From assembly GCA_004431415.1 (NCBI GenBank), contig QPMI01000115.1:87309-151308 (forward strand): a stretch of 64,000 bases of DNA, in the 5' to 3' direction. This document shows positions 23,830 through 64,000 of this stretch, piece after piece. This DNA comes from Cyanophora paradoxa CCMP329. Its lineage: Eukaryota; Plantae; Glaucophyta. The notes under the pieces are model-generated. The model saw only the letters and a program-made list of their open reading frames with translations, ran no database searches and was not told where the DNA came from. The translations under genes were made by a program, and so were the position numbers. Numbering within the stretch: the first letter of the stretch is position 1; every line of letters begins with the position of its first letter.

Positions 23830-26800
23830 TCAGCGCCAGCAGCAGCGGATGACGTCGGCCATGTCGCCGAGCACAGTGCCGCCGGCGAGGGGCCCGCGCC
23901 CGGAGCCTGCGCGAGGCGCGCCGGCGTCAGCGGGGCGGTCGCGGGGGGAGAGCGGCGCAGCCAGCCGGGCGGGCGGGCGGCCGCGCCCTCGGCTAGACGA
24001 AGGGGCAGAGGACGCCTCCGAACTTGCCATCGGCGAGGCCCGAGAGCGCCGTCCGCTCGACCTCCTCGGTGCACAGGTTCGCCGTCCGCCTGTCCACCGG
24101 TACCCCGCCGTCAGCCACGGATGGACGGGATGGATCGCAGGCGGGGCGGCTAGATGCGCCGAGGCGCTTTCGGATTGAGGGGTCAGAGGGGCGCACCGCG
24201 CGTCGGCGCAGTCGAAGACGACGCGCGCGGTGCACTCGACGAGAGGCGCGCTGACGGCCAGCCGCCCCGCGCCCTCCGCGCCCGCCCGCCATCCCTCCTC
24301 CGACGCCAGCGCCTCCCGCAGAAGCCGCGAGTCCACTGGGCGAGAAGGAAGTAAGAAGAGCGACGAGAGATCGGACGAGGAGAACGAAGGGATCGCTGTA
24401 CCCATGACGGTCGCCAGGATGGCGTTCGATTTGTCCACGGCGGAGCGAAGGGAGGAGGCGCCTCGCATCTGGGTACTGCGTCGGCGGCATGCGAGGGGGG
24501 GGGGATCAGGGGTACGCGTGCACCCCCTCCTGGATGCTTCCGAGGCGCGCCTCCTGCGGGAAACGGACGCCGGCTCGGCGGGGGTACGCGGGCTTCGGGC
24601 GTGTTCAGGGGGGTACGCACGTCGAGGCGGGATACGATGTCTCCGAGGAGAGCTGCGAGGCGGCCCTCCTGCTCCCTAACCGCCCGGAGATCCTCCTGCG
24701 GGGGGTACAGGCGTCAGGGGCGGGGTACGCGTGGATTGGGCGCGGGAAGCAGGGGACTCGCCTCGTGGGAGCAGCAGGGGCGGTCAAGGGCGGGGGCGGG
24801 GCCGGCCGATGCGCCGGAGCCCCGGGGCGCGGCGGGGGACGGAGCGCCCTCGCTCCCGGCGTCCGACGCCGGAGGCGGGGAGCGGACACGGGCGGGGTCC
24901 GGCGTGCGCGCCGGGGCCGCCGAGGCGAGGGCCAGCTGCAGGGCCGGCGGGTCCTCGCCCCCTCCCAGCGCCGTCACAGTGAGCATCGGGCTCGGCGGCG
25001 CGGGGCTGCGGCCCCCCGGCGAGCGCAGGGATCCCGAGGAGCCGCCGTGTACCCCCAGGGTCTCCATGGAGGCGGGGCGGGCGGCGGCCGGCCGCAGGGG
25101 CGGACTGGCGGGATCCAGGTTCCCGGACGACGAGATCCGCCGGGGGACGGCGGGGGTACTGGTCCCCGATGCCTCCGAGGGGGTACGCATCCCCGCGATG
25201 CTCATGTCCGAGGGCGGGCCCGGCGCCGAGGGCGACGGCAGGACCGCCAGGCTCTGCGGGCGGGGGAAGCGGCGGGTCTGGGTACAGAACTCGGAGGGGA
25301 AGGGGGTTGATGGGTGGGGGGTACGCGCACGTGGGCGCGGAAGTCGCGCGGTCCTTCTCCGTCGATGATGTTCGCGAGGCTCTGCGGGGTACGAGTTCGG
25401 CGCCGGGCAGCGGAACCGAAAAGGGCCTCGCGCGGGTTCGAACCCGGGAGCGCATGGCGACGGTGGCGTCCAGCGCGCTGATGGGGCGGATGACGTTGCG
25501 GGGGTGTACCCCCCCGAAGGTGCACGAGGAGAGGCGCCGCTGGAGGACGACGAAGGGGGGAGGGGCGCCGCGCTGCGTGGGGGGCGCGGGGCCCGAGCTG
25601 CCGCCGGTGCTCCCGTCGTCCGAGGTGGAGGGGATGGAGGGCAGGGGGGGTAGGGGCGACGCGGATAGGTCGCCGGCGAGGCGGCGCCCGAGCGACAGGG
25701 CCGCCTCCTCGGCCGACGCCAGCTCCGACTGGGGGGTACGGGATCGGATCGCGCGTGGGAGACGACGGTGGGAGTGGGCAGATGGCAGGGGTACGCACGT
25801 CTTCGGAGGCGATGGGGGAGAGGTTGACGGGGAGGGGATCGGATCGGAGGCTGTGGGGTACGGGAGTGTTAAAAGGGGTAGGGCGCAATGAAAGACTGTG
25901 GGGGATTGTTGGTTGCACCGCTCGAGTCGCGGGGAGGGGGGGACGTCGGGCTTCAGTGGGGGCTTGGAGGCCCGGGGGGGTACCGCTTCCCCTGTTGTGC
26001 ACGGTCTCAGTGGCCTGGTACGGGATGGGGAGGGCGGAGGGCGGGTGACCTGTCAGCTGCTCGATCTTCCCCCGCAGCGCGGTGTTCTCGGCCTGGGGTG
26101 GATGGTCAGCAGCCAGTCGGCCGGTTCCAGGCGTGTTTCGAACAAGATCCAGGGCGGCTCCGCGAGGCGGGGCGAACCTTCAGGACGGCGATGTCTCGCG
26201 AGGCGGCGGCGAGCAGCGCCCGCAGCTCCGCCGGGCTCATCTGAGGGCTCATATGAGCCGGGCGGGCGAGAGCGGCGGAGGCGGCGGGCGGGCGGGCGGA
26301 AGAGCGCACCTCCAGGTTGACGCGCGGCGAGTTGCGCATCTTCTTGGCGCGCTGCGGGGCCGGTGAGAGGAGCGGCCGGCGCGCGCCGCTCGGGGCGGGG
26401 CGGGGCGGGGCGGGCCTGGCCGAAGCGGAGCGTGGAGACCGTCTCGGCCTGGTAGGCGGCGGCCGGCGTGGCCGTCAGCACCAGCGCCGTCCGCGCGTTC
26501 CCCCCCAGCGACTCCTGCAGCAGCCTGCCGCCCCGGCGCGCGTCGGCGGCCGGCGGCGCGAGGGCGGCGCGGGGGCGCACCGCGTGAGCTTCGAGTCGCG
26601 GTACGGCACGTGCGTGCTCCGCCCGTCCGTCAGCGCGTTGATCACCATCCCCTGCGCCGCCCGCCGCCTCGGCCGCCGGCGGGGGCGGGGGCGGGGCGGG
26701 GGGGCGGGGCGGACGAGGGCGGAGAGGGACTTGTTGTTGATCTTGAGCTCCTCGAGCTGCTGGCCCTCGACGTCCGAGTCGCGGATCTTCTCGGAGCCGG

Positions 26801-28257
26801 CGAGGTCCACCAGGCACAGCTTCCCCGTCGTCGCCCGCCCGTCCCCCGCCGACTGCCGCTTCACCGTCACGATGAACACCGCGTGCGACCGGCTGCTCTC
26901 CGCGTTCGCCCGTGTCGCCGCCACCGCCCGCTGCGCGTTCCCCGCCTGCGCGCGCCCCTCAGCCCCGCCCCGCGCCCCGCCGCCCGCGCCGGGCGCCGCG
27001 GACCGCCAGCAGGTCCAGCATCTCGTCCGGGCTCGCCACGTACTGCGCCGTTGCGCCCCGACCCTGCCCCGCCCCGTCGGCCCCCGCCCCCCGCCCCGGA
27101 CCCCGCCCCGCGCACCAGATCCCGTGCTCCTTGCTCTCGTGGATCGGCTGCGCCGGCGTCAGACGCAGCGGCGGCGGGGCGGGGCGGGCGGGGCGGGCGG
27201 GGCGCACGAGGTTCTCGCGCGAGCCGCTCGGGTCGAGCAGGTCGCGCACCTGCGCGCCCCGTCAGGCCCGCCGCCCGCCGCCCGTCCCGCCGGCCCCGCC
27301 CGCGCGCCCGCTCGAGGTAGATCTCCAGGTACGAGCACCGGATCGTGAACTCCGCGTCCGCCGCCGCCGCCGCGATCCCCACGAACAGGCTCTGCCCCCG
27401 CCCCTCAGCCGCCGCGCCGCCCGCGCCGCCCCGCCGGCCCCGCGCACCTCCGCCACCCGCGGGATCACGCCCCGCAGCCGCTCGTCGTCGATCTCCCCCA
27501 CCATCGTGTACGTCTTCCCCTGCCCCGCCCGTCAGGCGCGCCCGCCCGCCCCGGCCCAGGTATCTCCCGCGGGCCCGCACCGTGCCCGTCTGGCCGTACG
27601 AGAAGATCGTCCCTGCGCGCCGCCCGCGTCGGCCAGGCTCGCCGGCATTCGGACGGGGCGCGCGCGCGGGCCGCACCGTTGTAGCCCTGGAGCACCGCCT
27701 GCACGATCGGCTCCGCCGCGACTGTGTAGACCCGCTCCTACGCGGCGGCTCAGCGGCTGCGGCGCGGGCGGCCCGCGGGCGGCGCGCGCCTGCGTCGCGT
27801 CCATCGGGAGCACGGCGTCGAAGCCGAAGGACGGCGCCCCCGTCACGTGCACCGACCTCCCATCCGCGTCGTGCTCAAGACAGCTGGTGTATCTGCGGTT
27901 GGGCGCTCAGCGACACGTGGATCGATTCAAATCCCACAGGCCCTGGATCGGTGCGCACCCGTTCTGTGTCTCGACCTGGGAGAAGGGCCTTATTCGGAGC
28001 ACAACCTTCACAGCGTCGTTTTGCTTGTGGCCGTGGTGGCTTGAATCGCCCACAGAGGCGCGGCTACCGCTATGCCTCGGCGAGCTGGCCCCGCTGTCGC
28101 TGTTCACAGGGGACGCGATGGACCTAGCGGAGTTGCCGCTTCCGGAATTTAAGGAGCTCACGCTCCCCGAGCGGCCCACCGCGGCGCTGTTCTGGGTGCG
28201 CGTAACGGGATTCGCCGGCTGCCTCCCGCGGCCGCGCGCCGCTCCCGTTGGCGGCAT
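23830..28257 (-). CDS. Kinesin-1 heavy chain-like motor protein (copy K')
   Basis: [77 protein letters not shown]; then a Pro/Ser-rich linker and a C-terminal block shared with copy K. Confidence 0.9.
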
Positions 28258-47330: not shown

Positions 47331-50300
47331 ATGGGGGACGTGACCGCTCTTGCCGTCGCGCTCGCCGCCAGCATGTCAGCGGCGCGCGACCGGCGGCGTC
47401 TGCATCTGCACGACGGCGGAGGCGGCGGCGGCAGCGCCCGCCCAAGCCTTCGGTCGCATTCCTTTCTCGGCGGGGCGCCGGCCGGCACCCGCTCGGGTCG
47501 CCCTTCGCGGCTCTCGCTGCAGGCATGGCGCCTGCCCATCGGCGAGGAGCCGGAGTTGGAGGCCGCCGACCCGGGCCAGCTAGCCGCGGGGCGCCGCGGC
47601 GACACCTCGTTCCGCTTTTCCATCCGTGATGTCATGCGTCAGGCCTCCATGCTCCAGTTTCAGCCGCGGCCCAGCAGGGAGGCAGCGGCGGCCGCGGCCG
47701 TGCACTCGCGGCTGGGGCCCGCCCCGGCCAGCGCCCGTTCAGCAGCCGCCGGCAGCAGCGCGCGGCGGCGCCTCTACCTGCAGAGCGGCGCCGGCGCCGG
47801 CGCGGACGCCTCAGGCGAAGACGAGACCGAACTGGCCGCCCGCGCCGCTCCGGCCGGCGCCGGCGACAGCGACGCGGAGGAGGCCGTCCTTCCGATCGCG
47901 ACGTGCGCCATTGATATCCGCCCCCGCCCCTTGCGACAGCGGCGCCCCCGCCTCCTCCTCCAGCTCCCTCCTGACTCCGAGCAGGCCGCGGTTCCAGGGG
48001 AAGCTGCCCTCCGGGACGGGCTGGGACGAGGAGCTTTCCGTCCGGGGCGGCCGCCTCCGCATCTCCTCCCGCCGCCGCCGCCTCTACCTCCTCTTCGCCG
48101 CCGTCCGACTCGTCCTTACCCTCGCCCTCATCGTTACTGGCGCCTTGGTGCGGGGCTACCCCCCTCCCTCCCCCCCCCCCTCCCCCCTCCCCGCCCGCCC
48201 GCCGGGACTTCTCTCTTAATTTCCGAGGGGGCAGAACATGTCGGGCGAGTTCAGGAACCTGGAGCGGGCGCGCGACATCGAGGGCTTCGTCGGCAACGTC
48301 GAGGCGCGTGCGGGCGCCGGCGCCGCAGCTTTTCGCGGGCCGCCGCCAACGCGCGCCCCGCGCAGGCGACTCTGTCGCTGGTGGACGGCCTGCAGCGCGA
48401 GCGCGGCTGGTCCGGCGTCGTCCTCGTGCGCGCTCCCCGAACGCACCGCAGTCGCCCCGCGCGCAATCGCCAGACCTAGAGATGGGTTAGAGAAGCCTGA
48501 GAAGGACTTCTTAGTGCTTCAGTGCTCTGCATCTAGCTCCGGATTCCTCGCGCTGACGGCACGGCCGCTCGGGCAGGGGACGCGGGCGCTGGACGAGGCG
48601 CAGCTGGGCCAGCGGACGGAACGGCTGGCCGAGCTGCGGCGCGACTCGGACCGCCGCGCCGCAGAGTGGCTGGCCCTCGGCCTCGACCCCCAGGTCCGCA
48701 CCGCGGCGCGGGCGGGCCTAAAAACAGCTAAGAGGTAGCTTAGACGCGTCGCATCGCAAGCCTCGACCCGCGCGCCCCGGCAAGCTGAGTGATAGAAGCC
48801 GAGAGCGCAAGTCTTAAAGCGTTCTTAGAGTCAAGCCTTGGGCCCGCTCACAAAGACAGACCTTCAAAAGGCTCTAGCCTCGGCTCGCGGCTCACGTCGA
48901 GCGCGCGCGCGGCAGTCGTTCCCCGGGTCGGCGGCCGAGATCCTCTCCCGCGTCAGCCCCATCCTCAGGCGCGCCCTTGGCTTGTTCCTTTCAAGCTTAA
49001 GTTTACTTAGCTAGCTTGTTCGACCCGAGCTCGCGCGTGTCTGTCGACGTCGCTCACGGGACGGCTGCGGCGGCGGGGCGCGGGCGCGGGGGTACAGGTC
49101 GGCGCTGCCGGGGCACAGGGGGGCCGTGGACCGGCGCTCCGTCACGACGCTCGACAACCTCCTCTTCTACAACCTCATCATCGACGGTGCCCGAGCAAAC
49201 CCGCAGCGATCTAGCTATAGGCGCCGGTCGACATCTGCTTCTAGATCTAGATCTAGATCTGCTTCTAGATTTTGCGGGGTCGAAGTCGACTCATGATCAC
49301 GCCACGCCTCCCCCGCCCGCGCCCGCCGCGACCGGGGCCGCAGACATCCTGCGCGGCAGGAACTTGGAAGGAAACCCTGACCTCCGCCCCGGCGCGGCCG
49401 CACGCGCAGAGATCCTGCGGGTGGTGTCGCTGCTGGTCGAGCGCTGCCCCGACCGCAACGTCCTCCGCGGCGTCGTCTCCCTCTCCTCCCTCGCCTACGT
49501 GCGCCTATCTCTATATATCTCAGAAAGCGATTGCAAGCGAAGGCCGGTGTCGATAAAGGATCAAAATTAGCTAAAATTTAGACCTCGATGCTTTAGGAAA
49601 TCGTCTCCCTCTCCTCCCTCGCCTACGTGCGCCCTCTAATCTTATATGTGTCTGAAATTTGATTTCAGAAAGTAAGCAAAGGTGTCCCTAAAGGATTGAA
49701 ATTTAATTTAGACCCAGTGATCGATCGCGATCGTGCGCGACCCAGATTTAGACAAAGGATCAAAATTTAGACCTCGATGCTTTAGGAAATCGTCTCCCTC
49801 TCCTCCCTCGCTTACGTACGCGTGCGCATGCGCCCCCTCTGATTTAAATTCTTCTAAAATTCCATCCTACGTTCGCCTCCTCTATATTCCATCCGAGGCC
49901 GACTCGTACACTAATTCGGGTCTAAATTTTGATCCTTTGCCTCGCACACATGCGCAGATGCAGGGTGCGCGGCCCCGGACGACGCGCTGCGCCCGTCTTA
50001 CTCGGCCGTCAACGTTTCTGATGCGGCTTCGGGGCGCGGGGCAGAGCACATGGGGCGGCAGCGGGCGGCCATCTCCTCGGCCCTCTCCCGCGGCTGCTTC
50101 TGCGGCATCGAGCGCGGTGCGCCAGCGCCCTCGCCCTCGCCAGCGCCCTCGCCACGCGTCCGCCACGCCAACGCGCCCCGCCCCGCCCCGCTCCACCCCT
50201 GCGCGGCCGCCGGCAGAGCTGTACGACCACGCCGTCGTGAGCAGGGGCGTCGAGGAGGCGCACCGCGACCAGTTCAGGCTCTTCGCCACCCCCGAGGAGC

Positions 50301-51573
50301 TCCAGACGTGCGTGCGATTCTGATTGGAGCCGGCGCGCTCCTCGAGAGTAGTGTCGCAGTCCGCGGAGCCCGCTGTACATGTGCTCGGTTGCCGCAGTGC
50401 TTGACCCAACAACTGACGCGCGCGGCTTTGCGTCGCGATCGCGGCAGGTACGCGTCGGCGGTCCGGGGGCCCGATGTCGACCTGGCGCTGCGGCTGCGCG
50501 CCGAGGTCCTCGCCGTCGGGCCGGTGCGCCCGCCCGCGCCGCCCGCCCGGCTGGGGCTGGCCGCGACGCCGACCGACTCGAGTCTACGCAGGGGGCGCCC
50601 CTCCCGTCTGCAGACACGCCCGAGCTCTGGTTCGACTCCCAGACTGGCTACATGGACCGCGTTGCGGTATGCCCCCGCAGCTGATCCCCCCCCCCCCCCC
50701 CCCCCCCCGCTGCCCGCCCCGCCGCCCGCCCCGAATCTTGCATCAACTCCACGCCCGCCCGCGGCCGCAGTCGGTCACGCGGACGATGCTCGTGCACGTG
50801 GTCGGCGCCGCGAACGAGGCGACGCGGAAGAGCTGGCAGCAGTGCGCGCGGCGCCCCATTTGACGACATAGAACAGCGTTAACGGCCCAGCGCATCGGGC
50901 GCTTGATCACGATCATATGACGCGCCTCGGACGCCCCTCCGCGCGCAGGTTCGCCTTCGCCCTGATCGGGGGGACGGCGAGCCTCCTGGGCGCGCTCTAC
51001 ATCCTCTACCACGCGCGCCGCGCCTGGAAGCAGGCCACGGACGAGGGGGTCGGCATCTGGCCCTGGGCGGCGCCGGTCCCGACGTCGACGACGCCGTGCA
51101 GCCCGGCCGCCACCGCCGCCGCCGCCGGCGCCGCCGGCGCCGCCGAGTCGCCCGCGGCCGCCCGCCAGCGCTCCAACTCGCTGCCGACGCCGACGCCGAG
51201 GCCGACCGCCCCGCCGCTAGCGCCCTCCACGACCGCGAATCCCGTCGGAATCCGATCCGCGTGCACGTGCAACGCGTGCGGCTGCGCGTGCGGGTCCTCG
51301 CGCGGCACGGATCTTGACCCGGACGACGGCTCCGGATCCGGCCGCGGGGCGCGCGGGCCCGGGCGCGACGCGGTGCGCGCCGTGGGCTTGGATCGCATTC
51401 GCGAGGCGGCCGAGCACAGCGCCCGTGACGACATTCTGGTTGTCGACTTCGATCGCGCCGACGCCGATCCCCCGGCGGCCGCGCCCGACGCGGGCGCCGC
51501 GGCCGCGCCCGCGGCCAGCGAGTGCACTCCGACGCCAGCTCCGGGTCGGGCCGCTCTAGATCTGTCTACTTAA
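47331..51573 (+). CDS. NIT (nitrate/nitrite-sensing) domain membrane receptor, two TM helices, no recognisable output domain
   Basis: TM1 (LYLLFAAVRLVLTLALIVTG); NIT motifs LVDGLQRERGWSGVVL, LAY|MQ|EHMGRQRA, QFRLFATPEE, PELWFDSQTGYMDRV; TM2 FAFALIGGTASLLGALYILY; low-complexity tail. Confidence 0.75.
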
Positions 51574-52736
51574 GCTTCTTGAACATCGCGGGGCCTATAT
51601 ATAGCACATCTCTAGGGGCCCCGCCCCGCGTCTCCTCCGCTTTGTAATTCCGCATCGTTTTCGTCTATAGCTCTGTATACGTAGTACTTTAGTATATATA
51701 ATGCTTTTTGTAGTCTTTAGCTTTTCTTGCAGTTTGTTTCTTTCTTTAACGTCGGCTCTGCTTTAATTTGTACATCATGGCATCTGCCATCTGCAGAGAG
51801 CGTTTCACTTGCAATGGCCGATTGCAAGCTGCACAGTATGTCAGTCGACGTCAATCGCGGTTTACTCGTGCATTATACATATATATTTACGTACACGTAT
51901 GGGCTCGCACTAGTACTAGGCGCGATCGCTATTTCATGATCAGCGCTAGCCGGCGCCGCGATTTATATACAGCTACGTATACAACTTTGCTGCAAAGCCA
52001 TGGCCATTCCTGTCATTTTCGGATTTAAATGTCGGCGGTTCAATTTCCTGTCAACTTGCAATTTCGGATTCAAATACCAGACCTGTACATGTGTATACAT
52101 ACGCGTACATGTACATTTTCACTGCTGAGTCATGATAAGTTCATCGGTTGATCCCATTAACGATTTAATTTATAATTATATGTATAATTTACAGAGCTGC
52201 GGGATGCATATCATCGTGCGCAATAACATGTACCGTATACTTATATAGCGCGTAGTACACCGTGGCACAGTCGTGGCCAAGATCTAGAGCGACGTCCGAC
52301 GGTCGACTTCACTGTTTCAAATTCGAATTCCGGCGCGGCATTCTTTTTGTACATATATATATATATGTATATAGGAGGGCCATCAATGGGCCAAACGCGA
52401 AAAGGCAACTCCGAGAGCTCGAGACTCGGAAGTGACGCTTGGATTGCGGAGGTTCTTATAACCGCCGCAACAGCTGTGGGGGTACCCCCTCCGAGGCTGG
52501 CGATCGCGGCGATCGCGACCCGATCGCGACCCTGGTGATCGCGACTTTCTCCCGATCGCGACCCTTTTCGATCGCGATTTCGAGATCGGGGGCATTTCTG
52601 CGATCGCGAGAAAGGAAAAATCGGAAAAGGCCGAAAAGTGCGTTTTTCACGCGTGAAATCGACCGAAAACGAGGGTTCGAATCCCGGGCCCGGATTTGGA
52701 CTTGGGCAAAATCTCGGACTGAAATGGGAGAAAAAT

Positions 52737-52795
52737 GGGACCTGGGACTTGGGACTTGGGACTTGGGACTTGGGACTTGGGACTTGGGAAGAGTT
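52737..52795 (+). repeat. Telomere-like array 1: GGGACCT(GGGACTT)6GGGAAGAGTT
   Basis: Six perfect 7-mers at 52744-52785, read directly. Confidence 0.97.
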
Positions 52796-52826
52796 GGAAT
52801 CAGAGTCTGGACTCAAAACGGGGAAA

Positions 52827-52848
52827 TTTTCGGAGGGGGAGAAAAATG
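52827..52848 (+). promoter_or_regulatory. Putative viral promoter/leader motif TTTTCGGA-N11-ATG
   Basis: The same motif occurs with N12 spacing at 55412-55434 (+), 57321-57343 (+) and 60546-60568 (-). Confidence 0.6.
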
Positions 52849-53316
52849 TCAGGCAATCTCTATTACGATTTCCCCTTTGAGTTGCATATGGCATTCGAGA
52901 GGCTGCGCGAGTTCTGGCGTTGGCACCTCACAGGACATGACATTCCCGACATAACACCAGAGCCCAACACACAGGGCGTGCTTGAAGTCATCCGTCAATA
53001 TCCGCGTCGATTCAATGAATGGATCGAGTTCCACGCAACGAACCGTTTCCAGAGTCTCCCCGAGGCCATACGCGAAAATTTCGTGAGGCTGGTGGGACCA
53101 GGCTACGACAACCCTAACAATCATAGACCACGCCCAGCTGGCGTGACGCGCGAAGCTCGAGAAGACCGTAGACTTTTCCGCAGGGAATTGAGAGAGGATA
53201 GACGGAGGCTTTCAATGGGGCTCCCGCAGATTGTGAGGGGGTACAGCCCGGATTACGAGACTTACCAAGAATTGTACGGCTTCGAAAATCCCTTTGAGAG
53301 GGTACTACCAGGGTGA
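52846..53316 (+). CDS. Hypothetical viral protein (~156 aa)
   Basis: Intronless ORF MSGNLYYDFPF...; AAAAATG start preceded by the shared motif; followed by a GC-rich hairpin. Confidence 0.6.
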   Translation: MSGNLYYDFPFELHMAFERLREFWRWHLTGHDIPDITPEPNTQGVLEVIRQYPRRFNEWIEFHATNRFQSLPEAIRENFVRLVGPGYDNPNNHRPRPAGVTREAREDRRLFRRELREDRRRLSMGLPQIVRGYSPDYETYQELYGFENPFERVLPG

Positions 53317-53654
53317 GGGGCCAGGGGGGGCCCCTGAGGGTGTACCCCCCATCCGAGACTCGACCTTCGGCGGACGCACTCGGGCAATTTCCGTCAGGCC
53401 GGCTCCTTTTTCTGTCTTCGGTCCAACGCTAAATTTGGCTTTTTCAGGCCAGTTGGCAACGTTTTCCGTTGCGAACTAGCCCAGGAAAAAATTCGCCCAC
53501 AAAACCGCGGTCCGCCGCCATTTTGCCTCACTCTTGAAACGGGTTCGCCGCCTTCTCTCAGCCCAAGGAAACCCTGCCTCTCCGAATTTTCACAAGTCCG
53601 CCCTCACAGTCACCTCACGTTTTGCCTTTGCTGATTTCTTTTCCCTTTGCGCAG

Positions 53655-54725
53655 ATGTCGATTCCCGCTGAGCTTGCCGAGGACTTCGCCTTTGTCCAAG
53701 CAACGTGGGCTAACTCCGGTGGCACTCAAGGGGCTACCCCTGAGATGGAGCAGCGCGCCGACGCTCTGGGGTACATCTACAATTATGCCATCTTACGCGC
53801 CACTGGCCCCGAAGTGCAACTTCTCCCCAAGTCCGCCTTCACGTCCAAGGCCAAGAAATCCAAGTCCAAGCAACCCAAGCCCGAGCCCCCCGTCGACGTG
53901 CCCCCCGTCCCCGGCTGGGTCAAGACCGCCAACGGCTGGGGCGACCCCAAGCTTTTCGCCGAGTCTGCTGCCGAGACGCTCGCCTGGGCCTACCCCCCTC
54001 AAGTCTTCACGAATTACCCCCCTCCGTCATCGTCGTCATCTGCCCCTCAGCCCGTCGCCGAGCCCGCCCCCGAGCCCGCCGATGACGCCAAGTCCGAGGC
54101 CTCTGACGTCGAGTCTGACATCAACGACTTCATCGACTTTGACGTGCCGATTCCATACGACTCTGAGTCGTCTTCTGACTCTGAAGGCGACAACGAAAAC
54201 CCGACTCGCAAGCGCCGCATTATCAAGACCAAGTCAATCGTCAAGAAGAAGTTCATGGAGACTACGTCATTCACCGACAACTCCGAGCGCGTCAAGGACC
54301 CCGCCAAGGCACACGAGAAGGACTTGAAGCTCGGCGCCGGCATTGCCCGTTCTCGCGTGACGTCACACTACAGCGAGCGCCTGACTCAGCACGTCAAGAC
54401 CATTGAGAAGCGCGTCCTCTGCAACGAGCTCCGCAAGGAGTTGGAGCGCAAGCGGCGCCACGAGCGCCTTGTCCAGTACCAGATCAACAAGGCGCGGATC
54501 GCCGAGCGCAAGCAGAAGGAGGCGGCCGAGCTCAAGGCGCGCATCGAGGCTCAGCAGCAGCGTGAGGCAGAGGCGGCAGCGGCCTTGGCGGCGCAGCGCG
54601 AGCGCGAGCGGCAGGACTTGGTGCAGGCAGCGCAGTCCCTTCCCCGCATTCCCCTTAAGTCGGCGCCCGAGGGCCTCATTGAGTTGGTTTCCGATGACGA
54701 TGACTCTGACTTTGAGATGCTGTAA
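53655..54725 (+). CDS. Putative nuclear regulatory protein (acidic tract, NLS-like PTRKRR, coiled coil, C-terminal SIM-like LIELVSDDDDSD)
   Basis: 356-aa intronless ORF with C/G-ending codon bias; the ATG is immediately preceded by CTGAT-polypyrimidine-CAG (likely 5'UTR intron acceptor). Confidence 0.7.
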   Translation: MSIPAELAEDFAFVQATWANSGGTQGATPEMEQRADALGYIYNYAILRATGPEVQLLPKSAFTSKAKKSKSKQPKPEPPVDVPPVPGWVKTANGWGDPKLFAESAAETLAWAYPPQVFTNYPPPSSSSSAPQPVAEPAPEPADDAKSEASDVESDINDFIDFDVPIPYDSESSSDSEGDNENPTRKRRIIKTKSIVKKKFMETTSFTDNSERVKDPAKAHEKDLKLGAGIARSRVTSHYSERLTQHVKTIEKRVLCNELRKELERKRRHERLVQYQINKARIAERKQKEAAELKARIEAQQQREAEAAAALAAQRERERQDLVQAAQSLPRIPLKSAPEGLIELVSDDDDSDFEML

Positions 54726-54796
54726 ATAGTATTGCGTCATTCCATTGTACATACTTGTAAAAATTGGCCGACTATTCAGTTACGACTTGGCGCGAT

Positions 54797-54858
54797 CCTG
54801 GGACTTGGGACTTGGGACTTGGGACTTGGGACTTGGGACTTGGGACTTGGGAAGAGTT
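54797..54858 (+). repeat. Telomere-like array 2: CCT(GGGACTT)7GGGAAGAGTT
   Basis: Seven perfect 7-mers at 54800-54848. Confidence 0.97.
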
Positions 54859-54955
54859 AGACTCAGGGTCTGGGCCCAGAATCTCTCTGGATCTGAGAGT
54901 TTGCCGCGCCAAGTCCCTAACCACCGGGCAGACATGTAGAGGGGTACGGAAATCT

Positions 54956-55147
54956 GCATATGACGTTTCTGGTGACATTCCAGGTGAGATTTCAAGCGAG
55001 GTAGAGTCTGAACTGGTGTACGACTTGTAGCATGATACTGGACATGAAAGCTCACGAGAGTATGCAACCGAAAACGGATGTGAAGAGGGGTAGGAGTTTT
55101 CGTGTGAGATGTCGAGAGAAGGAGGGTACGAGATGGGATACGAGTAA
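54956..55147. repeat. Cryptic 12-bp-period array (invariant GA every 12 nt, 16 periods)
   Basis: GA at 54962, 54974 ... 55142 without exception; the other positions vary. Confidence 0.9.
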
Positions 55148-55214
55148 AAAAGACTACGAGTAAAAAAGACTACGAGTAAAAAAGAGTATGAGGAGTGGTA
55201 GGAGTAAAAAAGTC
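55139..55214. repeat. 16-bp tandem repeat TACGAGTAAAAAAGAC x3 plus one degenerate copy
   Basis: Read directly at 55139-55185 and ~55199-55214. Confidence 0.9.
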
Positions 55215-55287
55215 GGTAGAAAAACTCACCTGACTTGTCTGACAAATTTCTGATCCTGGAGAAAGTCTGGGCCGGGACCTGGGTTTC

Positions 55288-55410
55288 AACTCTTCCCAAG
55301 TCCAAGTCCCAAGTCCCAAGTCCCAAGTCCAAGTCCCAAGTCCCAAGTCCCAAGTCCCAAGTCCCAAGTCCCAAGTCCCAAGTCCCAAGTCCCAAGTCCC
55401 AAGTCCCAGG
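55288..55410 (-). repeat. Telomere-like array 3 (inverted): CCT(GGGACTT)~16GGGAAGAGTT
   Basis: AAGTCCC x14 plus two AAGTCC units at 55298-55407, bounded by AACTCTTCCC and AGG. Confidence 0.97.
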
Positions 55411-55431
55411 TTTTTCTGAACCTAGGGCAAA

Positions 55432-55797
55432 ATGGCCCTGCTCCGGTGCACCGACTCGCAAGACGTCGCCTACAACGTCCTGGTCAACTCGGACGTACCC
55501 CCGAGTGCCTTGGAGTTTCCCTGGAGAGTGGACAGGGACAGGGTGAGCAAGACGTTTGGAGGGCGCAAGCACTACCTCTCCCAGCTGATCCTCGGGAAGT
55601 CGCCACGTGGACGCTACGTGGAACACATCAACGGCAACCCGCTGGACTACAGGAGGGAGAACCTGCGCTGGGCATCAATGTCGGAGATTCGCAAGAAGAG
55701 GAGGGGGTACGCCAATTTACAGGAGAAGAGCGAGGAGATTCGGGAGATGATGGAGGCGACACAGGTGCTAATGCAGCTTAGCCAGTCTAGACGCTAG
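55432..55797 (+). CDS. HNH endonuclease-like protein (HNH_3 type)
   Basis: YVEHINGNPLDYRRENLRWAS matches the V(D/E)HINGN.lDNR..NLR motif of phage/viral HNH proteins. The usual DN is DY here, so it may be inactive. Confidence 0.8.
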   Translation: MALLRCTDSQDVAYNVLVNSDVPPSALEFPWRVDRDRVSKTFGGRKHYLSQLILGKSPRGRYVEHINGNPLDYRRENLRWASMSEIRKKRRGYANLQEKSEEIREMMEATQVLMQLSQSRR

Positions 55798-56599
55798 TGG
55801 TGTGAATCTTGGTGTCGTACTCGCGACCGACCGTTTCCCAGGCCACGTAAACTTCGGCTCCGGCGCCTGGCGCTGTCGAGTTGGTAGTCGCAGTCGTGTA
55901 GTCCGCCTCTGCCTCAATTAGTTCGGCCATGAGGGTAGAGCCCACGACCATTCCAGAGGTAGGCATTCCGGCGATGTTGTTGTACAATTTGAAAGTGAAT
56001 TTCGTGAAGAGGAGCCGGGGCCAGACCTGGGTACGGGGATTCGAGGCGCCGTATGAATAATCGGTACCCGAGGCGCCGCCCGTGGTGGCATTCGTCATCA
56101 TCTCCTTTGCGGTCATCTTCCAGAGGTTGTACATCTCAAAGGGAACGGCCTGCGTGGTCTTGTGTGTGGCATCGATGAGGGCGCCATCTAAATGCGTTTT
56201 GATGTTCGGATTCGCACCATTCCCGAATTTGCGAGTGAGGGCGGTGTTAGCGGTGAACTTGAGTTCGAGCACGCGAATGGCGGGCCGATCAGGCACAGAG
56301 GGCTCTATCTTTTTCAGGAGGCCCGAGAGCCAGAGCGCCTCCGCCTCATCCGCGCTCACGCCCGAGTCGATGTCAAAGTACACGTACACGGAGCAGGAGG
56401 CGGGATTCTCGAAATCGTTGGAGGTGACGCGCAACATGACGGGATTCTGGACCCTCACGGTGAGCGGGGTGGCGTAGTTTCCGTCCCACTCCACCTTGTC
56501 CGTCCCTGCGTTGGCCACGTTCCCAGCGTTGCCGTAGAAATCGGGGACGATCGAGCCGGCAGACACGGTCTTCACGATGGTGGCCGAGGTGGTCGGCAT
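55787..56599 (-). CDS. Putative virion structural protein, paralogue 1 (270 aa)
   Basis: Beta-rich ORF; aligns by eye with the upstream gene (VQNPVMLRV/LQNPVVIQV; SGLLKKIEP/SGLVKKVAP; LELKF/LEVKF; NPR..PRLLFTKFTF/NPR..PRFPFTFFRF). The structural role is inferred from context. Confidence 0.55.
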   Translation of the reverse strand: MPTTSATIVKTVSAGSIVPDFYGNAGNVANAGTDKVEWDGNYATPLTVRVQNPVMLRVTSNDFENPASCSVYVYFDIDSGVSADEAEALWLSGLLKKIEPSVPDRPAIRVLELKFTANTALTRKFGNGANPNIKTHLDGALIDATHKTTQAVPFEMYNLWKMTAKEMMTNATTGGASGTDYSYGASNPRTQVWPRLLFTKFTFKLYNNIAGMPTSGMVVGSTLMAELIEAEADYTTATTNSTAPGAGAEVYVAWETVGREYDTKIHTTSV

Positions 56600-56622
56600 T
56601 TTGCGACCTCAAATGAGAAAGA

Positions 56623-57302
56623 TTATCCGTGAAAGAGGGTGATGTCGCCACCGATGTTCATGACGCGGGCCCCAGGCACAGAGTCAGCGTCGGTGCCGTA
56701 CGCGTAGGAAATCGAGCACTCACGCAGCTCCGCGCAGAGGCTGGCGCCCGTGCTGAAGTGGGGCTGGTCGGCGGCGTAGGAGAGGGGGAAGACCTGGAAC
56801 CTGAAAAAGGTGAAGGGGAAGCGGGGTAGAGTCGAGCCGCGTGGGTTGCCGCCCGTGTAGAGGGCCCCCAGGGTCGCGGGACTTGGATTGAATTTCGTGA
56901 AGAGCACGTCGCCCTTGAGCGTACCCTCATCTGGTAAGTTCCCGTACCCGGAAGATTCGAAGAACTGGGGTACCGGTTCACGGTGGGGCCGTACCCCGTC
57001 TCCCTGAACTTGACCTCGAGACAGCGCAAGACGTTGGCAGTGGCCGTGGCAGGTGCCACCTTTTTCACGAGTCCTGATTCGTGCAGCAGCTCGATAACCT
57101 CTGCGCTGAGGCTCAGAGGGTCGAAGAAGAGCTGGTAGGAATAAATCTTGGGCGTGGCGTAGGCGTTCTGAACGACCTGAATCACGACGGGATTCTGCAG
57201 AAAGACGTCGACGTAACTGCCGGAGGGTATGCGTGCGAAATCCTTGGTGTTGTTGCCAACGTCAAGTGAGCCGCTGAGGGTCTGGTACCAGTTGGAAGTC
57301 AT
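56623..57302 (-). CDS. Putative virion structural protein, paralogue 2 (one frameshift near 56.93-56.99 kb)
   Basis: ORFs 56658-57302 and 56623-56907 together are colinear with 55787-56599. Confidence 0.55.
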
Positions 57303-57340
57303 TTACCCGGGGCAGATATTTTTTCGGATCGTAGAGGAAA

Positions 57341-57739
57341 ATGCCCCGCTTCGTATTCGTGAAAAAGCAGGTGGTGCAGGCTCCGCAGTATGGCGTGGAG
57401 CCGATCTCGCTGACTGTGGGCAGGCCCCAGGTGCGATCGGGCTCCGTGCTCAACAACGGGAACAGTACGTACGGCTTTCAGCTGAACTGGGTCGCGGTCA
57501 CCAACGCCGTCAAGTACAAGGTGTACAGGGCGACCAGCATCAACGGCCCCTGGGATCTCGTGGCCACGGTGAATGCGCCAACCGTCACCTACACGGACTC
57601 TCCCTTTAGTTTGGGGGCCCAGCGACTCTACCGCGTGGCGGCGGTTCGCGAACAGGGCAGCAGCAGCACGGGCTCTGATGGCAAAGCCCGCCCACAACCT
57701 ACGCACAGTCGCTTCTCTACACCCACGAGGGTGCCATGA
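57341..57739 (+). CDS. Fibronectin type III-like domain protein
   Basis: LNWVAVTNAVKYKVYRATS..TYTD..YRVAAV FN3 pattern; its stop overlaps the next start (ATGA). Confidence 0.7.
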   Translation: MPRFVFVKKQVVQAPQYGVEPISLTVGRPQVRSGSVLNNGNSTYGFQLNWVAVTNAVKYKVYRATSINGPWDLVATVNAPTVTYTDSPFSLGAQRLYRVAAVREQGSSSTGSDGKARPQPTHSRFSTPTRVP

Positions 57740-59472
57740 GCAATTACATTCTCTTCCAAGGCATAGGCGGCTTCAGCCCGCAGATCGAAGCCTACACCAC
57801 GCTCACGACCGCCACGGCCCAGACCTACGGCGATTTTATTGCCGGGGCGCCCCGCGTCTTCGGGCTTCCCGAAACCCGCCATAGTCGTCACAATCAACTG
57901 GGTGGCCATGGAGGGCGCGGACTCGATTCGAATTTACAGGAACGGTACGCCAATCGGATTTGCGAGCAGTGCCCTGTCTACCTCGTACATTGACGATAGC
58001 ACTGCTCTTACGTGGGGCACGGAATACTCTTACCAGGTGGCCGGCATCGTGGGCGGTGTCGAATACGACAAGTCCGATCCGCTCCTGGTCTGGACTATGC
58101 CAAACGCCCCACGAACGTGACGGCATCAGCACCCAACGACCAGCAGCAGCCTGTCAGCCTCAGCTGGACTGCGTCCACGGGAGCGACGGGATACAAGATT
58201 TACAGAGACGGGGCCTACCTCACAGACTCCGCGACCAACTCCTACAGCGACACGACCACCGTCTGGGGTACAGGGTACGAGTACCAGATCTCCGCGACGA
58301 ACACGGGAGGGGAGGGCCGAAGAGTATTGCGGCGTACGTCACACGGACCCGGGGCGCCCACTGGGCTCACTGCAACCCCCGCGGCGGGGGCAGCACAGCC
58401 TGTTGTGCTCGAGTGGTCGGTGCCGGTGACGGGCGTCACCGTCTCCTACAACATCTACAGGGGTGGCGTGTTCCTTGCCAGCGACACGAGCAGCCCCTTT
58501 TCGGACACAACGACCGTTTACGGAACCACTTACACTTACACCATCAAGGGCGTCAACCAGATCGGCGAGGAAGGCCCTCAGTCCTCGTCTGCCAGTGCAA
58601 CAACTGCAAACGCTCCTGTTTTGGGTACATTCTCCTACACCGGGGCCGACCAGACTTTCGTAGTACCAACGGGGACTGTGGCTGTGCGTGTCATCGTATG
58701 GGCGGCCGGGGGTGGAGGCGGAGAACGCGCAGGTACGGGGGTCCGTGGAGGCGCGGGTGCTTGCGTAGTTGGTACATTGGCTGTGTCCTCGGGGGAGACG
58801 CTCATCCTTGTTGTTGGATGCGGCGGCCCAAAGGGTGTATCGGGGACTGCCACTGCTACCGTCTACGGAGGTGGTGGAAGGGGCTGGAGCCATAGCGTCG
58901 ATCCGGAGTACAAAAACGGCGCCGGTGGTGGTCGTTCTGCAATTCAGCGCGTTGCAGGGACCGACTTGGTTGTTGCAGGGGCCGGAGGTGGGGTACATGT
59001 GATTCGAATGGCGGCGGGGAGTAGGCGGGGGTTGACCGGTGGTGCGGCTGGGTTGGTTGGAGTAACCGGAGAGATACCGGCTCAAGGAGGCACCCAAACC
59101 GCTGGCGGAGCCGGTGTTGTGGCCTCAGGGGCCAGGCCCAGCAACCCGGGAACTTTGCGCCAAGGTGGAGAGACTGGGCCTGATTCAAGCGGCTACAGGT
59201 TCGGTGGTGGTGGTGGTGGTGGTTACTTCGGTGGAGGCTCTGGGTCCAGCAGGAGCGGAGTGTCAGAGAACCCAATAGCAAGAATGTTTGGAGGTGGCGG
59301 TGGCTCGAGCTACATAGGAAACTTGACGGATGCTACGGTGTATCCTGGGTCCGGCCAGGTGGCAGGAAATAGCGGAGACGCTCACTACGCAGCAGGCATT
59401 GGTAGGGGCGGCAACGGTGGCTCGTCTTTCAGCGACGGTGGCAACGGTCGAATTGTGATACTCGCGGTGTAG
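57736..59472 (+). CDS. FN3-repeat + glycine-rich (ALK/LTK-type GRD-like) surface/fibre protein, with several 1-nt frameshifts
   Basis: Three FN3-like units (W..IRIYRNG..YIDD; LSWTASTGATGYKIYRDG..YSD; LEWSVP..YNIYRGG..FSD), then TFSYTGADQTFVVPTG..VWAAGGGGG..GGAG..VSSGETL..VVG.GG and GGGGGGYFGGG, GGGGSSY, GGNGRIVI. Frames join near 57860 and 58110. Confidence 0.75.
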
Positions 59473-59492
59473 TTATTCCTAGTTGTTCCAGA

Positions 59493-60548
59493 TCAGCTCG
59501 CCAGTGCCGCTACCTGGTCTTTGAGAGTTTGAACTTCTTGTGAAAGTTCCTGAATTGCCTTCAACGACAGGAAATGAGCCTGTCGTAGTTTACCCGAGAA
59601 ATCCATCCGCGTTCTCGAAAACGAGACTCGGGAAGACGCCTTGGACTTCCTGTGCGATGAGACCGTAATCCGTTTTCGAACCCCCGAGGATGTGTTCTTC
59701 CAGGTGAACGACACGGGATTCAGCTGCAGCAGAAGAGGGAGAATGCCCGACATGCTCGCGACATTTTCTTTCAGGCGGCTATCGCTCGACGAGTTTGTCA
59801 GGTATCCTTGAGCATCCGAATAAACGGCTCGGTTTCCATCGCCCGTGAGCGTCGAGACGATGAGCCGACCCGTGATGCCAACGCCGACGGTTCCGCACAG
59901 CAGTCGTTCGGTGCCGTTGTTTCTCAAGGATAGACCAGAGCTGACGCTTCCGCTATCAACGATTGAAGTGTTTGCTATGCTTAGGCCATTAGTAGGGCCT
60001 TCGATTGCCGAGGTAAATAGAGTACCTGTAACACCAACGCCAAGAGTCCCACAGAGGAGTCTATCGTTTTCGTTGTACTTTATAGCTACGCCTGAACCAC
60101 CGCCATTTATGTACGGTGACGTTCCGGTAATTTGCAGCTTATCGTCCAATGTAACGATGCCCGCCAAGTTTGAAGCCCCGCTCACCCTAAGCCCCCCACC
60201 ACGTTTGCTCCGCCTCCTTGCACATACAGAGCCGCATTCCCCTCCCCGTTCACAGTCCCATTAAAGGTCACCTGATTCGTGGTGTACCCGCTCCCGTCCC
60301 AGGCCCGTTCGTGACGGTGAGCCTCTGCGTCCTCACGCGCCCCGGCACGGCCGACCCGCCTCCCGCGTGCGCATCTTGTCGCAGCGCAGCTCGCCGACGC
60401 GGACGAGGTCGGCCTCGGAAAAGGGGACGGCCGTGGCGTTGTAGGGGGCCTCGGTGGCCTGGTTTCCGAGGGTGGTCTCCTTAATCGTGTGATCGCCCTT
60501 GTGATTCACGCTGGCAGCATAGGTAAATAGAGGGACAGCGACCGACAT
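59493..60548 (-). CDS. Fibre protein with C-terminal Peptidase S74 intramolecular chaperone (frameshifted)
   Basis: SSDSRLKENV..LLQLNPVSFTWK, shifted-frame DYGLIAQEVQGVFPSLV, terminal KAIQELSQEVQTLK coiled coil; internal repeat (D/E)RLLCGT.GVG.TG.L x2. The start at 60548 carries the shared upstream motif. Confidence 0.8.
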
Positions 60549-60569
60549 TTTTGGATTGCATCAGAAAAT

Positions 60570-61500
60570 CGATTACATAAGCAGCTTGCCGATCGGGTCC
60601 AATGAATAAAAAGCTGGACAATTTGGGTGGGCGTGACCGTCATTCTGGGTTGGAATCTCACTTTAACTGTAAAGCCAGTGTGACTCACCGCCGTGACGTT
60701 GGCCCCGTAGAAATCGACATCCGTGCTGCCGCGGGATTGATGTCGAACGAGGGGGTTACGTTAATAACCGGCGTTGGGTTTGCTGGGTCCCCAGTCCGCC
60801 TCCAGTGTCGTACGCTGTCCGAATGTAATGTTGAACGTCACCGTGTATGTTGAATTGATGTTAAACTCCGTGTACGCAGCGTAGGAGTGGAAGGACGTGC
60901 CGTGCGTTATGTACGCATCCATGTTCACGTTTCTGTGCCCGTGCTGGTGAGCGATACTCTGTGTGACTGTGCGTAGAGGGTGGGAAGGAAGTGGGTCGGT
61001 CGATGACATTATCCCAGTACACATTGTGATGTGTGTAGAGGGGGGGAAGGTAAGTGGCTTGCCCGTTACGTTGTCCAATCCACGGAGATGTTCGTCAAGT
61101 CCGGGGCCGTCCAGTCGCTGATCTGAGAGATGGTGTGCTGGTGGTCTGCGTGGGGATACGTACTCGGCTTCCCGTGATGCTATCCCACGCCCACGTTGTT
61201 GGTATCACGGTATCGTCGGCCTCCCGCTGAGATCTGCATACGCCCCGTGTGTGCCACCGTCGCCAGCTGCGGCACGGCAACGCCCACGGTGCTCACGGCC
61301 TGGCTCGCCCCCGGCGCCATGTGCCACTCGTAGTTCTGCGATGCAAACACGGGCTGGCCTGGCTCGGGCGCCAGTACTCGATGCTTTGGCGATCTTCTTG
61401 GTGTATGGTGCTGCAGGCCTGTCAACCAATTTATCGACGTAGGCTTGGGTACCAGCCAGTTTTGCCTTGGGGCTCTGCGAATTGATCCGTTGTCTATGAA
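60570..61500 (-). CDS. Fibre-like protein with W..ITGKP..FPP repeats and lectin/gp53-like C-terminus (frameshifted; limits uncertain)
   Basis: Fragments in alternating frames: GTQAYVD, AWDSITG(KP), LDNVTGKPLTFPPSTH, YTVTFNITF, VSHTGFTVKV..IHW; these patterns are typical of phage/viral fibres. Confidence 0.5.
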
Positions 61501-61799
61501 GGCCCGTAATTCCTGAAGGCCTCGGCCTCCCACCAATCCTGCATGCGAAGGTCCCGGGAATCTCGAGGCGCGAGTTGGCGTCGCCAGGCGGGCACCTGCG
61601 CCCCCGTTCGACGAGACGCCGAGGTGACGGATGGCCGAGCCGAATTCGCGCCTTAGGGCTTCGATGTGATTGATCCTGTTGAGGCCCTCCTGGTAGACGG
61701 CAATTAAGACGCGCTTCCGCCCCTTGGCTCCTCTTTATCATCGCTTCAGGTCGCGCATAAGTCGACTCAGGGCGAGCGAAGTCGACCCGAAGCCTCCTG

Positions 61800-64000
61800 C
61801 ATTTAACGGTGAGCTGGGAGAGGAAGAGCACGGGCGCGCGATCGATTTCGAGCAGGGTCTTCTGGTCCTTGGGGTACGGTAATCGTTGATGCTGTTGTCG
61901 AGCGCGCGAATGAAGGCTGCAGCTCTTCGGCTCCTTGATTTCGTTTAACCGCAGGCTCCTGGGCCAAGAGCGAGGCCATTTCGCGCGCCTCCGAGGGTCG
62001 TACACACCCAAAAATCCGGAGCCCAGCTGCCTCCAGCCGATTAATTCGGTTGCGCAGCTGGCTCGCCTCGTCGCCACGTCTCGACGCCCCAGTCGTAGAT
62101 CTGTTGCGAGAGCTCCGCGATGAACTGTATGGTGTCGGTCGCCAGTCGACGGGGACTTGAAAAAGTTCTTCACGATTTCTTCGCGCTGCGCCCGTGATGA
62201 TATCCACGATCACCTGCGCGATGGCGCCCGCGAGGATGGACAGGCCAAGTCGCCCACCGTGCCGATCCTCATTTTCGTGAGGGCGCTCAGGGCGGACGAC
62301 ATGCCCGTCTGAAGGCCAAAAGAGCCGACCGTCATGATCATCTGATCGCGGAACGTATCGAAGACTGGCTCCCCTATCTTGCCCTGCGAGAGCGCCTGGT
62401 AGGCCGAGAGCAGGCCGCCGGCCGTCGCCAGCCCAAGGCCCGCCGCCGCCGCGCCCGCCCGCCGCATGGCCCGCGAGCCCGTACCCCCGAGCCCGGCGCC
62501 CACCAAGTCGATGCCCGCCCCCTGAAATAAATCGGCTGCCCCGAAAGACATGCCGTCGTTGTTCGCCGTACCCGCCGCCGAGAAGAGCGTCTCGGCGCTG
62601 AGGCCTCCTTGGCCACCCCGGGCCGCCTTGCCCTCGGCGCCCCAGGTACGCGTCGCGCTGCTCTTTGGTGGTGAATCGCTCGAGGTCGAAATCGGCGAGG
62701 GCGTCGGCGGTGGCGCGGTTCCAGTCGCCGTAGGGCATGAGGGCGTTGCGCAAATAACGTCCGAGTCGCCCATCACGCGCCTGTCGAGCGTCTGAAACAC
62801 GCCCTCGGAGGGCAGGCGGCGGTGCCCGGGCGCATCTCCTCCACGGAAACGTCGTCCCTCTCCGCGAGTGTGATGTCGTCTGGGCTGGCCAAGCCGACGC
62901 CCGCGCCCTCATCGGCGTACGCCCTTCCCCTCGTTTTAATATTTGATTGGCCTCCCGTTTCAATGCTTGGTACTCTGTCTCTACCTTGGTCTTTCTTGCC
63001 TCTTCCTCTGCCGCCTTGCGCTCTGCGATCTTCCGCCTCTGCTCTTCTATCTCGGCGTTGCGTCTCGCCGCGTTCTCCTTGGCTTGCTGCTTCCGCTCTT
63101 CGATCACCCTGTTTGCGTACTCCTTGTCCGCTTGGGCCTTTCTGTAGCGCTCCTCGATCTGACTCTTGGCCTCGTCTCCTCTCTTCCTTAGATCGCCCAT
63201 GAATGCCGTCGTATCTATGTGAATCTTGTATTTGGCGGGTGGGTGCTCACGTTTGAAGGCCTCCAGATCGCGCACCATGGCATCGTACTGCGCGAGCCCC
63301 TCCGCTGGAATGATGGCTCTTCGCATTTCCCAAAATTTGCTCAGCTTGCCACGTAATCGACCATGGAGAGGTACGCGCTCTGTGCGCCCGCGCTCACCGT
63401 TTTCGGATTGGCTCGCAGCTCTGCCAAAACTCCCCCTTTTGTATCCGGTACAGTGACCATTCGAGGGCTCCCCGCCACAGGCTCGCTTCCGTCCGCAGTT
63501 CTCTGTGCATCTCCTCCACGTCGCCGTATGCTATCCAGATGGCATCGCTGATGGGCCTCTGAACAGCCTGACGCTCAAAGTTTTTCCACTTCTCATCGGC
63601 CATCTTTCTCCTCAGTTCTTCGGCGTCTTTCTGACCCCTTCCCGTCAGCTGATCCATAACGTAGCTAAAGTCGCGCATGTTCTCTTCCATGGCGCGGAGC
63701 CTGTCCCCGATGCATTTCCTTCTTTCAGTCTTTTGAGCTCGAGCGGTAAAAATCCATCTGCGCCCCCCTGAACGTCTCCAGTCGTCGCTTACGCTCCGCT
63801 ACCTTCGGCTCCTCCAGCCGTGCAAATTCCTCGTCTGATGCAGTTTGCATTGCCTTCAGTCGTTCCTCTTCTGTCTGGCAGCTGCCTCCTCGTCCGCCCT
63901 GCGCCGCTGCTCTAACGCGTCGAAGAGGGCCCTCTGATCCTCGAGCGTGAGGCCAATGAGCTCTTCCACCTGGTCGCTCCTACCAGCCGCGCGAAGGGCA
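61800..64000 (-). CDS. Large coiled-coil protein with Gly/Ala-rich hydrophobic segment (frameshifted, 5' end outside window)
   Basis: E/K/R-rich helical fragments (63394-63690, 62950-63326) followed by GAAAAGLGLATAGGLLSA..LSILAGAIAQVIVDII; resembles tape-measure or membrane-penetration virion proteins (inference). Confidence 0.5.

Follow-up and report, generated by a model that had tools for sequence, protein, structure and literature searches.

Near the right end of a 64,000-nucleotide stretch of the glaucophyte alga Cyanophora paradoxa CCMP329 (contig QPMI01000115.1 of assembly GCA_004431415.1, positions 87,309 to 151,308; the whole stretch is hereafter called the window), host DNA gives way to sequence of a different composition. 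What is this sequence, is it truly part of the chromosome, and to which group of elements does it belong? An initial annotation had taken 52374..64000 for the left part of an integrated eukaryotic DNA virus, possibly of an undescribed lineage. We find that a real virus-like DNA element, contiguous with the algal chromosome, has its left end in this interval, and that the element is young and multicopy, with dozens of near-identical copies in its host. The view of it as an integrated eukaryotic DNA virus is supported by a junction at single-copy depth, the dozens of copies, virus-type fibres, the lack of a match among phage records and a eukaryotic flank. We consider it probable that the element belongs to an endogenous Polinton-like virus (PLV) family already catalogued in this alga, with cis-elements that may be undescribed, and it is unusual mainly for a tandem pair of genes of predicted SSBs (proteins that bind single-stranded DNA) beside telomere-like arrays. 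Besides the published studies cited below, preprints (10.64898/2026.07.28.741278 and 10.64898/2026.08.29.747986) were drawn on.

Junction and copy number

The guanine plus cytosine (GC) content is 70.6% at 24000-51550, 43% in a spacer at 51551-52373 and 58.7% from 52374 on. The AT-rich spacer described in the initial annotation ends in a (TA)n tract at 52354..52373, the sole tract of at least five TA units in the window. Contigs of four sequencing runs were placed on 49000-52725 using 31-letter words. In all four, a single-copy host contig ends at 52397, 30 nucleotides past 52367, with a depth (43.8, 4.69, 19.9, and 54.1) like that of the adjacent host pieces. Terminal contigs from 52375 have depths of 2449, 155, 605, and 2900, that is, 55.9-, 33.0-, 30.4-, and 53.6-fold higher, where read depth is a rough guide to copy number that terminal repeats would double and free copies would raise. 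With 31-letter words, a contig end at 52397 means that the sequence from 52368 on is common to other loci, which places the end of the element within 52368-52375 and implies that TATATA precedes at least one further copy as well. These last six nucleotides of the tract (52368-52373), common to at least one other copy, possibly represent a target preference or a candidate 6-bp target-site duplication, or else the first bases of the terminus. The proposed left boundary at about 52374 is thus supported by both contig ends and the jump in depth, and entry of the single-copy contig into the element in every run argues against a chimeric join. Among the matches listed, neither a loose end nor a joint indicated an empty site; contigs lose rare variants. 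The stretch was contained in 20 of the 24 listed runs, every one under a single organism label. No RNA run is recorded as containing it, and six runs presumed to be RNA contained 34-41% of the words.

Homologues of three element proteins also give a view of the copies: two adjacent paralogues, A and B (55787-57302), and a long protein (60573-64000). For paralogue A, 14 homologue clusters were recovered, of which 12 consist of EukProt gene models and together comprise 41 sequences; paralogue B added nine further clusters (32 members), and the long protein 14 EukProt clusters (25 members). Among the EukProt models, A and B have adjacent gene numbers on three contigs, and A or B lies within one to four gene numbers of the long protein on four contigs, indicating that gene order is conserved between copies, including a subfamily at ~60-66% identity. 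These copies probably belong to C. paradoxa, as their names follow its contig series in Table S2 of PMC10120064. Depth, EukProt homologues and GC contrast agree on integration in many copies of a protist nuclear genome. No related locus was found in IMG/VR (five protein scans and one short repeat motif) or in JGI metagenomes (two protein scans). More distant relatives, recovered without genomic context, are P0018 and P0019 of paralogue B (~40%) and P0008 and P0012 of paralogue A (~60%).

Fibre genes and other coding content

Three fibre-type genes fill the right part of the window. The longest, at 60573..64000 on the reverse strand, encodes the C-terminal ~1,100 of ~1,600 residues of the long protein; its start lies beyond the window, giving an element length of at least 11.6 kb plus ~1.5 kb for the remainder of this gene. 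Aligned to residues 489-1591 of the copy P0032, it shows 1034 identities (97%), 28 differences, 40 frameshifts, of which 39 are deletions, and no stops. With indels outnumbering substitutions and stops lacking, errors in the consensus are a better fit than decay, and the frameshifts are likely long-read or assembly errors, such that a real copy would be intact. False fragmentation of genes in multicopy insertions has been described (PMC10120064). The protein comprises a long E/K/R-rich coiled coil, two hydrophobic segments and phage-tail-type repeats (phage minor-tail repeats, phrog_14, E 1.4e-9), and appears fibre- or tape-measure-like. Hence, the right 3.4 kb of the window is one long broken gene. 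With the S74 region and the FN3/Gly-rich region each probably a single gene too, the gene count falls from the initial about 11 to about eight. Copies P0028-P0041 of the long protein exchange alternative segments, the first coiled coil and the hydrophobic middle occurring in two versions each, and the C-terminal tip likewise has two versions (e.g., P0033), which suggests recombination between subfamilies.

The fibre gene at 59493..60548 (reverse strand, several frames) ends in an S74 intramolecular chaperone (Peptidase_S74, PF13884, E 5.8e-6), also has PHROG tail fibre matches and is probably a single gene; at 60509-60185 it matches coding portions of the copies P0035 and P0041. At 57341..59472 on the forward strand, FN3 repeats followed by a Gly-rich domain are spread over three frames (fn3 E 1e-6; ALK/LTK Gly-rich E 2.5e-8, both Pfam) that, when joined, probably encode one virion attachment protein of ~700 residues. 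Phage-like fibre genes of this kind (S74, tail repeats) are present as expected of a PLV, for which they are typical, not defining.

A free-standing HNH_3 protein of 121 residues is encoded at 55432..55797 on the forward strand (PF13392, E 1.9e-7, 31.1 bits versus a Pfam cut-off of 24.8; PHROG HNH families also matched). Its sequence is EHINGNPLDYRRENLRW. Pfam matches therefore recover all of the HNH, S74, and FN3/Gly-rich domains originally named. A conserved Asn of HNH motifs is seemingly replaced by Tyr in this protein, which may consequently bind DNA without cutting it. Neither the HNH protein nor paralogues A and B had a sequence match to a solved structure, and the stretch had no Rfam match.

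The two leftmost genes are both on the forward strand. ORF1 (open reading frame 1; 52846..53316, 156 residues) carries the upstream motif described below and had no recognisable family in Pfam/PHROG-type profile scans and no Atlas match. ORF2 (53655..54725, 356 residues, GC content at third codon positions 0.80) is acidic, then coiled-coil, with no family recognised in profile scans and no upstream motif. Its ATG directly follows a pyrimidine tract and GCAG, an intron-acceptor-like arrangement resembling a 5' untranslated region intron, and ORF2 is likely an early nuclear-transcribed regulatory gene. It also has a basic stretch resembling a nuclear localization signal, TGTAA at the stop, and a hydrophobic-acidic C terminus (LIELVSDDDD) that resembles a SUMO-interaction motif.

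In the host flank, a Pfam match was obtained for one of the 110 frames scanned (of 260 frames of at least 70 residues), an exon of a kinesin motor domain at 26478-27158 on the reverse strand (PF00225, E 1.4e-30). Diverged inverted copies of one uncharacterised host-side gene lie at 18-2760 (forward) and 18000-20763 (reverse); they share near-identical peptides and are located in a part of the window with 50-60% GC. Several short host motifs common to many loci occur across 49240-51500, visible as loose ends and short joints of the contigs (49240-49334, 50120-50550, and 51183-51497).

Repeat arrays, upstream motif and the paralogue pair

The left terminal noncoding region (52374..52735), a candidate terminal inverted repeat with the depth jump at 52375, contains six TCGCGA palindromes (52513-52604) and folds as DNA with a z of -3.3 (1 of 100 shuffles as good); its likeness to the stretch after ORF1 is weak, being matched by 3 of 300 shuffles. 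The telomere-like arrays of the initial annotation were confirmed as three arrays of a 7-nucleotide unit. Array 1, (TGGGACT)7.7 at 52736..52789 on the forward strand, is followed by a ~35-nucleotide tail common to array 2 (54799-54852) and the inverted array 3 (55294-55408), whose G-rich strands face inward. Each array begins with CC and closes with a related tail, which makes the three copies of one unit. Tandem Repeats Finder gave 71 rows over the whole window, and TGGGACT occurs as a unit in these arrays only. Arrays 2 and 3 enclose an A-rich spacer, itself containing a 16-nucleotide repeat (2.9 copies, 55139-55185). Their arms are 56 nucleotides long, 100% complementary and 502 nucleotides apart, and the single-strand fold of the region has a z of -12 (0 of 20 shuffles as good). 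The whole unit, 54797..55410, is a candidate replication origin or regulatory hub.

The arrays fit the canonical G-quadruplex pattern, which by itself is not special because it is common in the GC-rich host flank (86 occurrences versus nine in the element). Common telomere units form no arrays anywhere in the window, and TGGGACT was not found in the literature as a host telomere unit ("telomer" is absent from the main text of PMC6704402). Our literature search found no paper on internal telomere-like arrays in PLVs; terminal palindromes, and insertion close to telomeres of the host, are described in a Halocafeteria preprint. The shared upstream motif was likewise upheld: of seven gene starts within the window, five are preceded by TTTC[TG][GC]A-N-AAAATG, which has no occurrence in the 52 kb of host DNA. 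Its mean in 500 shuffles was 0.012, a figure that overstates the case as the pattern was drawn from the same sites. Several of the motifs overlap with the stop codon of the gene before (56620, 60567). The genes of paralogue B and the FN3 protein point away from each other; only 38 nucleotides separate their ATGs (57302-57341), and they have the upstream-motif region in common.

Paralogue A (55787..56599, 270 residues) is intact and paralogue B (56623..57302, 226 residues) has one frameshift near 56926; both are on the reverse strand, and the pair had been overlooked in the first reading. They share 40% identity over 68 residues (27% overall in one alignment), and 216 of 225 aligned residues of B are identical to the intact copy P0016. 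An AlphaFold model of B was obtained from an 11-sequence alignment (pLDDT 75.8, pTM 0.81). Foldseek retrieved nothing from the PDB at E 1e-3, and in BFVD the best match had an E of 3e-4, with phage single-stranded DNA-binding domains making up several of the top named rows. VIA-align on the Foldseek candidates ranked the Enc34 SSB first (Z 4.5, root mean square deviation [rmsd] 4.5, 132 aligned), with T7 gp2.5 (Z 4.3, rmsd 4.1, 117 aligned) and DUF2815 also in the top three, a Z of ~4.5 being lower than unrelated models often reach. Against 48,161 chains, Enc34, gp2.5, and DUF2815 were again at the top (Z 4.2, 4.2, and 4.0). Cdc13 had a Z of 3.8, and OB-folds accounted for nearly all 50 VIA-align rows. 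The model thus makes an OB-fold likely for B and, via homology, for A; both are putative members of the gp2.5/Enc34 subfamily that would bind single-stranded DNA. A jelly-roll capsid or cement identity for 55787-57302, an Atlas lead (PF21190, 0.84), is rejected in view of the predicted OB-fold.

If the element is a PLV, the following scheme can be proposed. An rve-type integrase would have inserted a linear genome, bounded by terminal inverted repeats, at a TA-rich site, and genes for this enzyme, the capsid and packaging would sit beyond the window. The integrated copy would lie silent in the chromosome and retain the capacity for reactivation, perhaps through a giant virus. ORF2 would be an early gene of host RNA polymerase II, and the TTTC..A-N-AAAATG motif might act as a late or viral promoter-start signal. 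Paralogues A and B would coat the displaced strand during replication and could melt the G-quadruplex- and hairpin-prone arrays at 54.8-55.4 kb, while the three fibre genes would form attachment structures for independent cell entry.

Affiliation and comparison with known systems

C. paradoxa carries 366 PLV capsid genes in two clusters, ~7% of its genome (PMC10120064, Tables S1 and S4). Columns of Table S6 of PMC12220804, counted by hand, list 156 glaucophyte PLVs, with an A32 ATPase in 139, an rve integrase in 85, a tyrosine recombinase in none, pPolB in 49, HNH_3 in 40, S74 in 37, D5_N in 40, and COG3378 in 38. According to the same study, a PLV of C. paradoxa encodes a PTR-PTR-H_lectin protein, and most PLVs encode fibre-like proteins of >1000 residues. 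Given a host with hundreds of PLVs, and the fit of the HNH_3 and S74 counts and of the PTR-PTR-H_lectin fibre, the undescribed lineage entertained in the initial annotation is the less likely reading. Adintovirus-like sequences are also known from C. paradoxa.

Several observations weigh against the PLV assignment or its supports. In agreement with the initial annotation, profile scans of the 11.6-kb part of the window found no capsid, ATPase, polymerase/primase (pPolB included) or integrase. No double-jelly-roll capsid or penton gene is present there, the candidate pair A/B being predicted OB-folds instead, and an A32/FtsK-type packaging ATPase was not found within the window. None of the six capsid-bearing contigs in Table S2 of PMC10120064 is among the named homologues, which are cluster representatives. 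The HNH_3 and S74 figures of Table S6 (40 and 37) are close to the ~41 copies here and would suggest a D5 primase-helicase family; as these are marginal counts, the agreement is perhaps a coincidence. The C-terminal H-lectin of the long protein has an E of 0.068, below the Pfam cut-off, and the Pfam PTR model had no match in this protein. The SSB fold match is weak (Z <5, with Cdc13 within one Z unit), and literature searches found no paper on T7-type SSBs in PLVs. Homopolymers show no clear enrichment of frameshifts (17 of 40 versus a background of 0.37). Finally, the junction contig holds 24-30 element letters, under the 31-letter rule for a bridge, a shortfall inherent to a junction that borders a repeat.

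Gamadviruses, like several nucleocytoviricot families, have conserved T7-like OB-fold SSBs (PMC11253617; Ariadnavirales preprint), giant-virus insertions are known in C. paradoxa (PMC12344493), and proteins of pandoravirus, mimivirus (R506), and EsV-1 (EsV-1-76) are among the BFVD rows (E 6e-3 to 9e-2). The element could accordingly be a small integrating relative of the nucleocytoviricots, mriyavirus- or gamadvirus-like, or the edge of a giant-virus insertion. We regard this as unlikely: dozens of near-identical copies with a sharp common end and subfamilies at 60-85% identity point to a PLV-type expansion, the best fold matches are phage rather than giant-virus SSBs, no nucleocytoviricot core gene (HUH, VLTF2/VLTF3, capsid) was found in the 11.6 kb, and "integrat" is absent from the main text of the mriyavirus paper (PMC11253617). 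Equally doubtful is a distinct lineage of integrating algal viruses, perhaps between PLVs and small nucleocytoviricots, which would target (TA)n microsatellites and replicate from an internal origin; this origin would consist of telomere-like G-quadruplex arrays in inverted orientation, recognised by the virus's own heteromeric OB-fold pair, a viral counterpart of telomere end-binding proteins.

The lack of any hallmark gene in the visible part would also suit a capsid-less, non-autonomous derivative, transposon- or transpoviron-like, that kept its fibre genes and spreads via another virus, and many published glaucophyte PLVs have no integrase (present in 85 of 156; PMC12220804). Three intact-looking fibre genes (~6.5 kb) would be hard to explain if there were no capsid, however, and the window covers only part of the element, leaving this reading rather improbable. 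A chimeric contig or contaminant bacterial phage DNA, to which the phage-type domains (HNH, S74, tail repeats), the very high error density toward the window end and the limitation of read placement to 49000-52725 might point, is most improbable and already largely refuted by the junction contig at single-copy depth in four of four runs, the one organism label of 20 of the 24 runs, the kinesin exon in the flank and, for the phage origin that the initial annotation had asked about, the lack of a match in 50,697 phage records (tblastn of two proteins, blastn of 8 kb) and Shine-Dalgarno-like words at only two of 11 candidate starts.

On the favoured reading, that of a catalogued PLV family, an alga that can be cultured apparently harbours dozens of copies, young and probably intact, making reactivation and replication testable. 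No characterised glaucophyte virus appeared in the literature covered, and replication of the PLV group in question is mostly unknown. Joint action of the tandem OB-fold proteins and the inverted G-rich arrays would provide a concrete replication mechanism for this group; if they do not cooperate, the element is an ordinary member of the catalogued set.

Among known systems, gamadviruses and mriyaviruses are small eukaryotic double-stranded DNA viruses with a T7-like SSB, comparable with the predicted SSBs here, whereas none of their core genes (HUH, VLTF2/3, capsid) was seen in the window and they are not described as multicopy integrated elements in the available account (PMC11253617). The T7 gp2.5, Enc34 ORF6, and DUF2815 SSBs share the predicted OB-fold and were the top three in both VIA-align runs, at Z 4.0-4.5, rmsd >4 Å and 8-12% identity; the proteins here have larger insertions, occur as two paralogues in tandem and, judging by their sequences, lack an acidic C-terminal tail. 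Tectivirus PRD1 falls into the same broad lineage, has a linear genome and encodes two SSBs, P12 and P19 (PMC11886824), but P12 has its own OB-like fold, absent from the fold matches here, making this an analogy only. Cryptophyte and Gezel-14T-type PLVs have S74-ended fibres, HNH genes, and large modular attachment proteins in common with the element, although their HNH domains are mostly fused to other domains and the one here is free-standing (PMC12220804). For C. paradoxa PLVs, the portions of PMC10120064 and PMC12220804 available to us do not describe tandem OB-fold paralogues, (TGGGACT)n arrays, the upstream motif or a TA target; the tandem OB-fold pair, the inverted G-rich arrays, and the TA target may thus be undescribed parts. 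With these same PLVs the element shares its probable host, multicopy integration, a GC content below that of the host, HNH_3, S74, a phage-tail-repeat/H-lectin fibre, a fibre-like protein of >1000 residues, and apparent false frameshifts.

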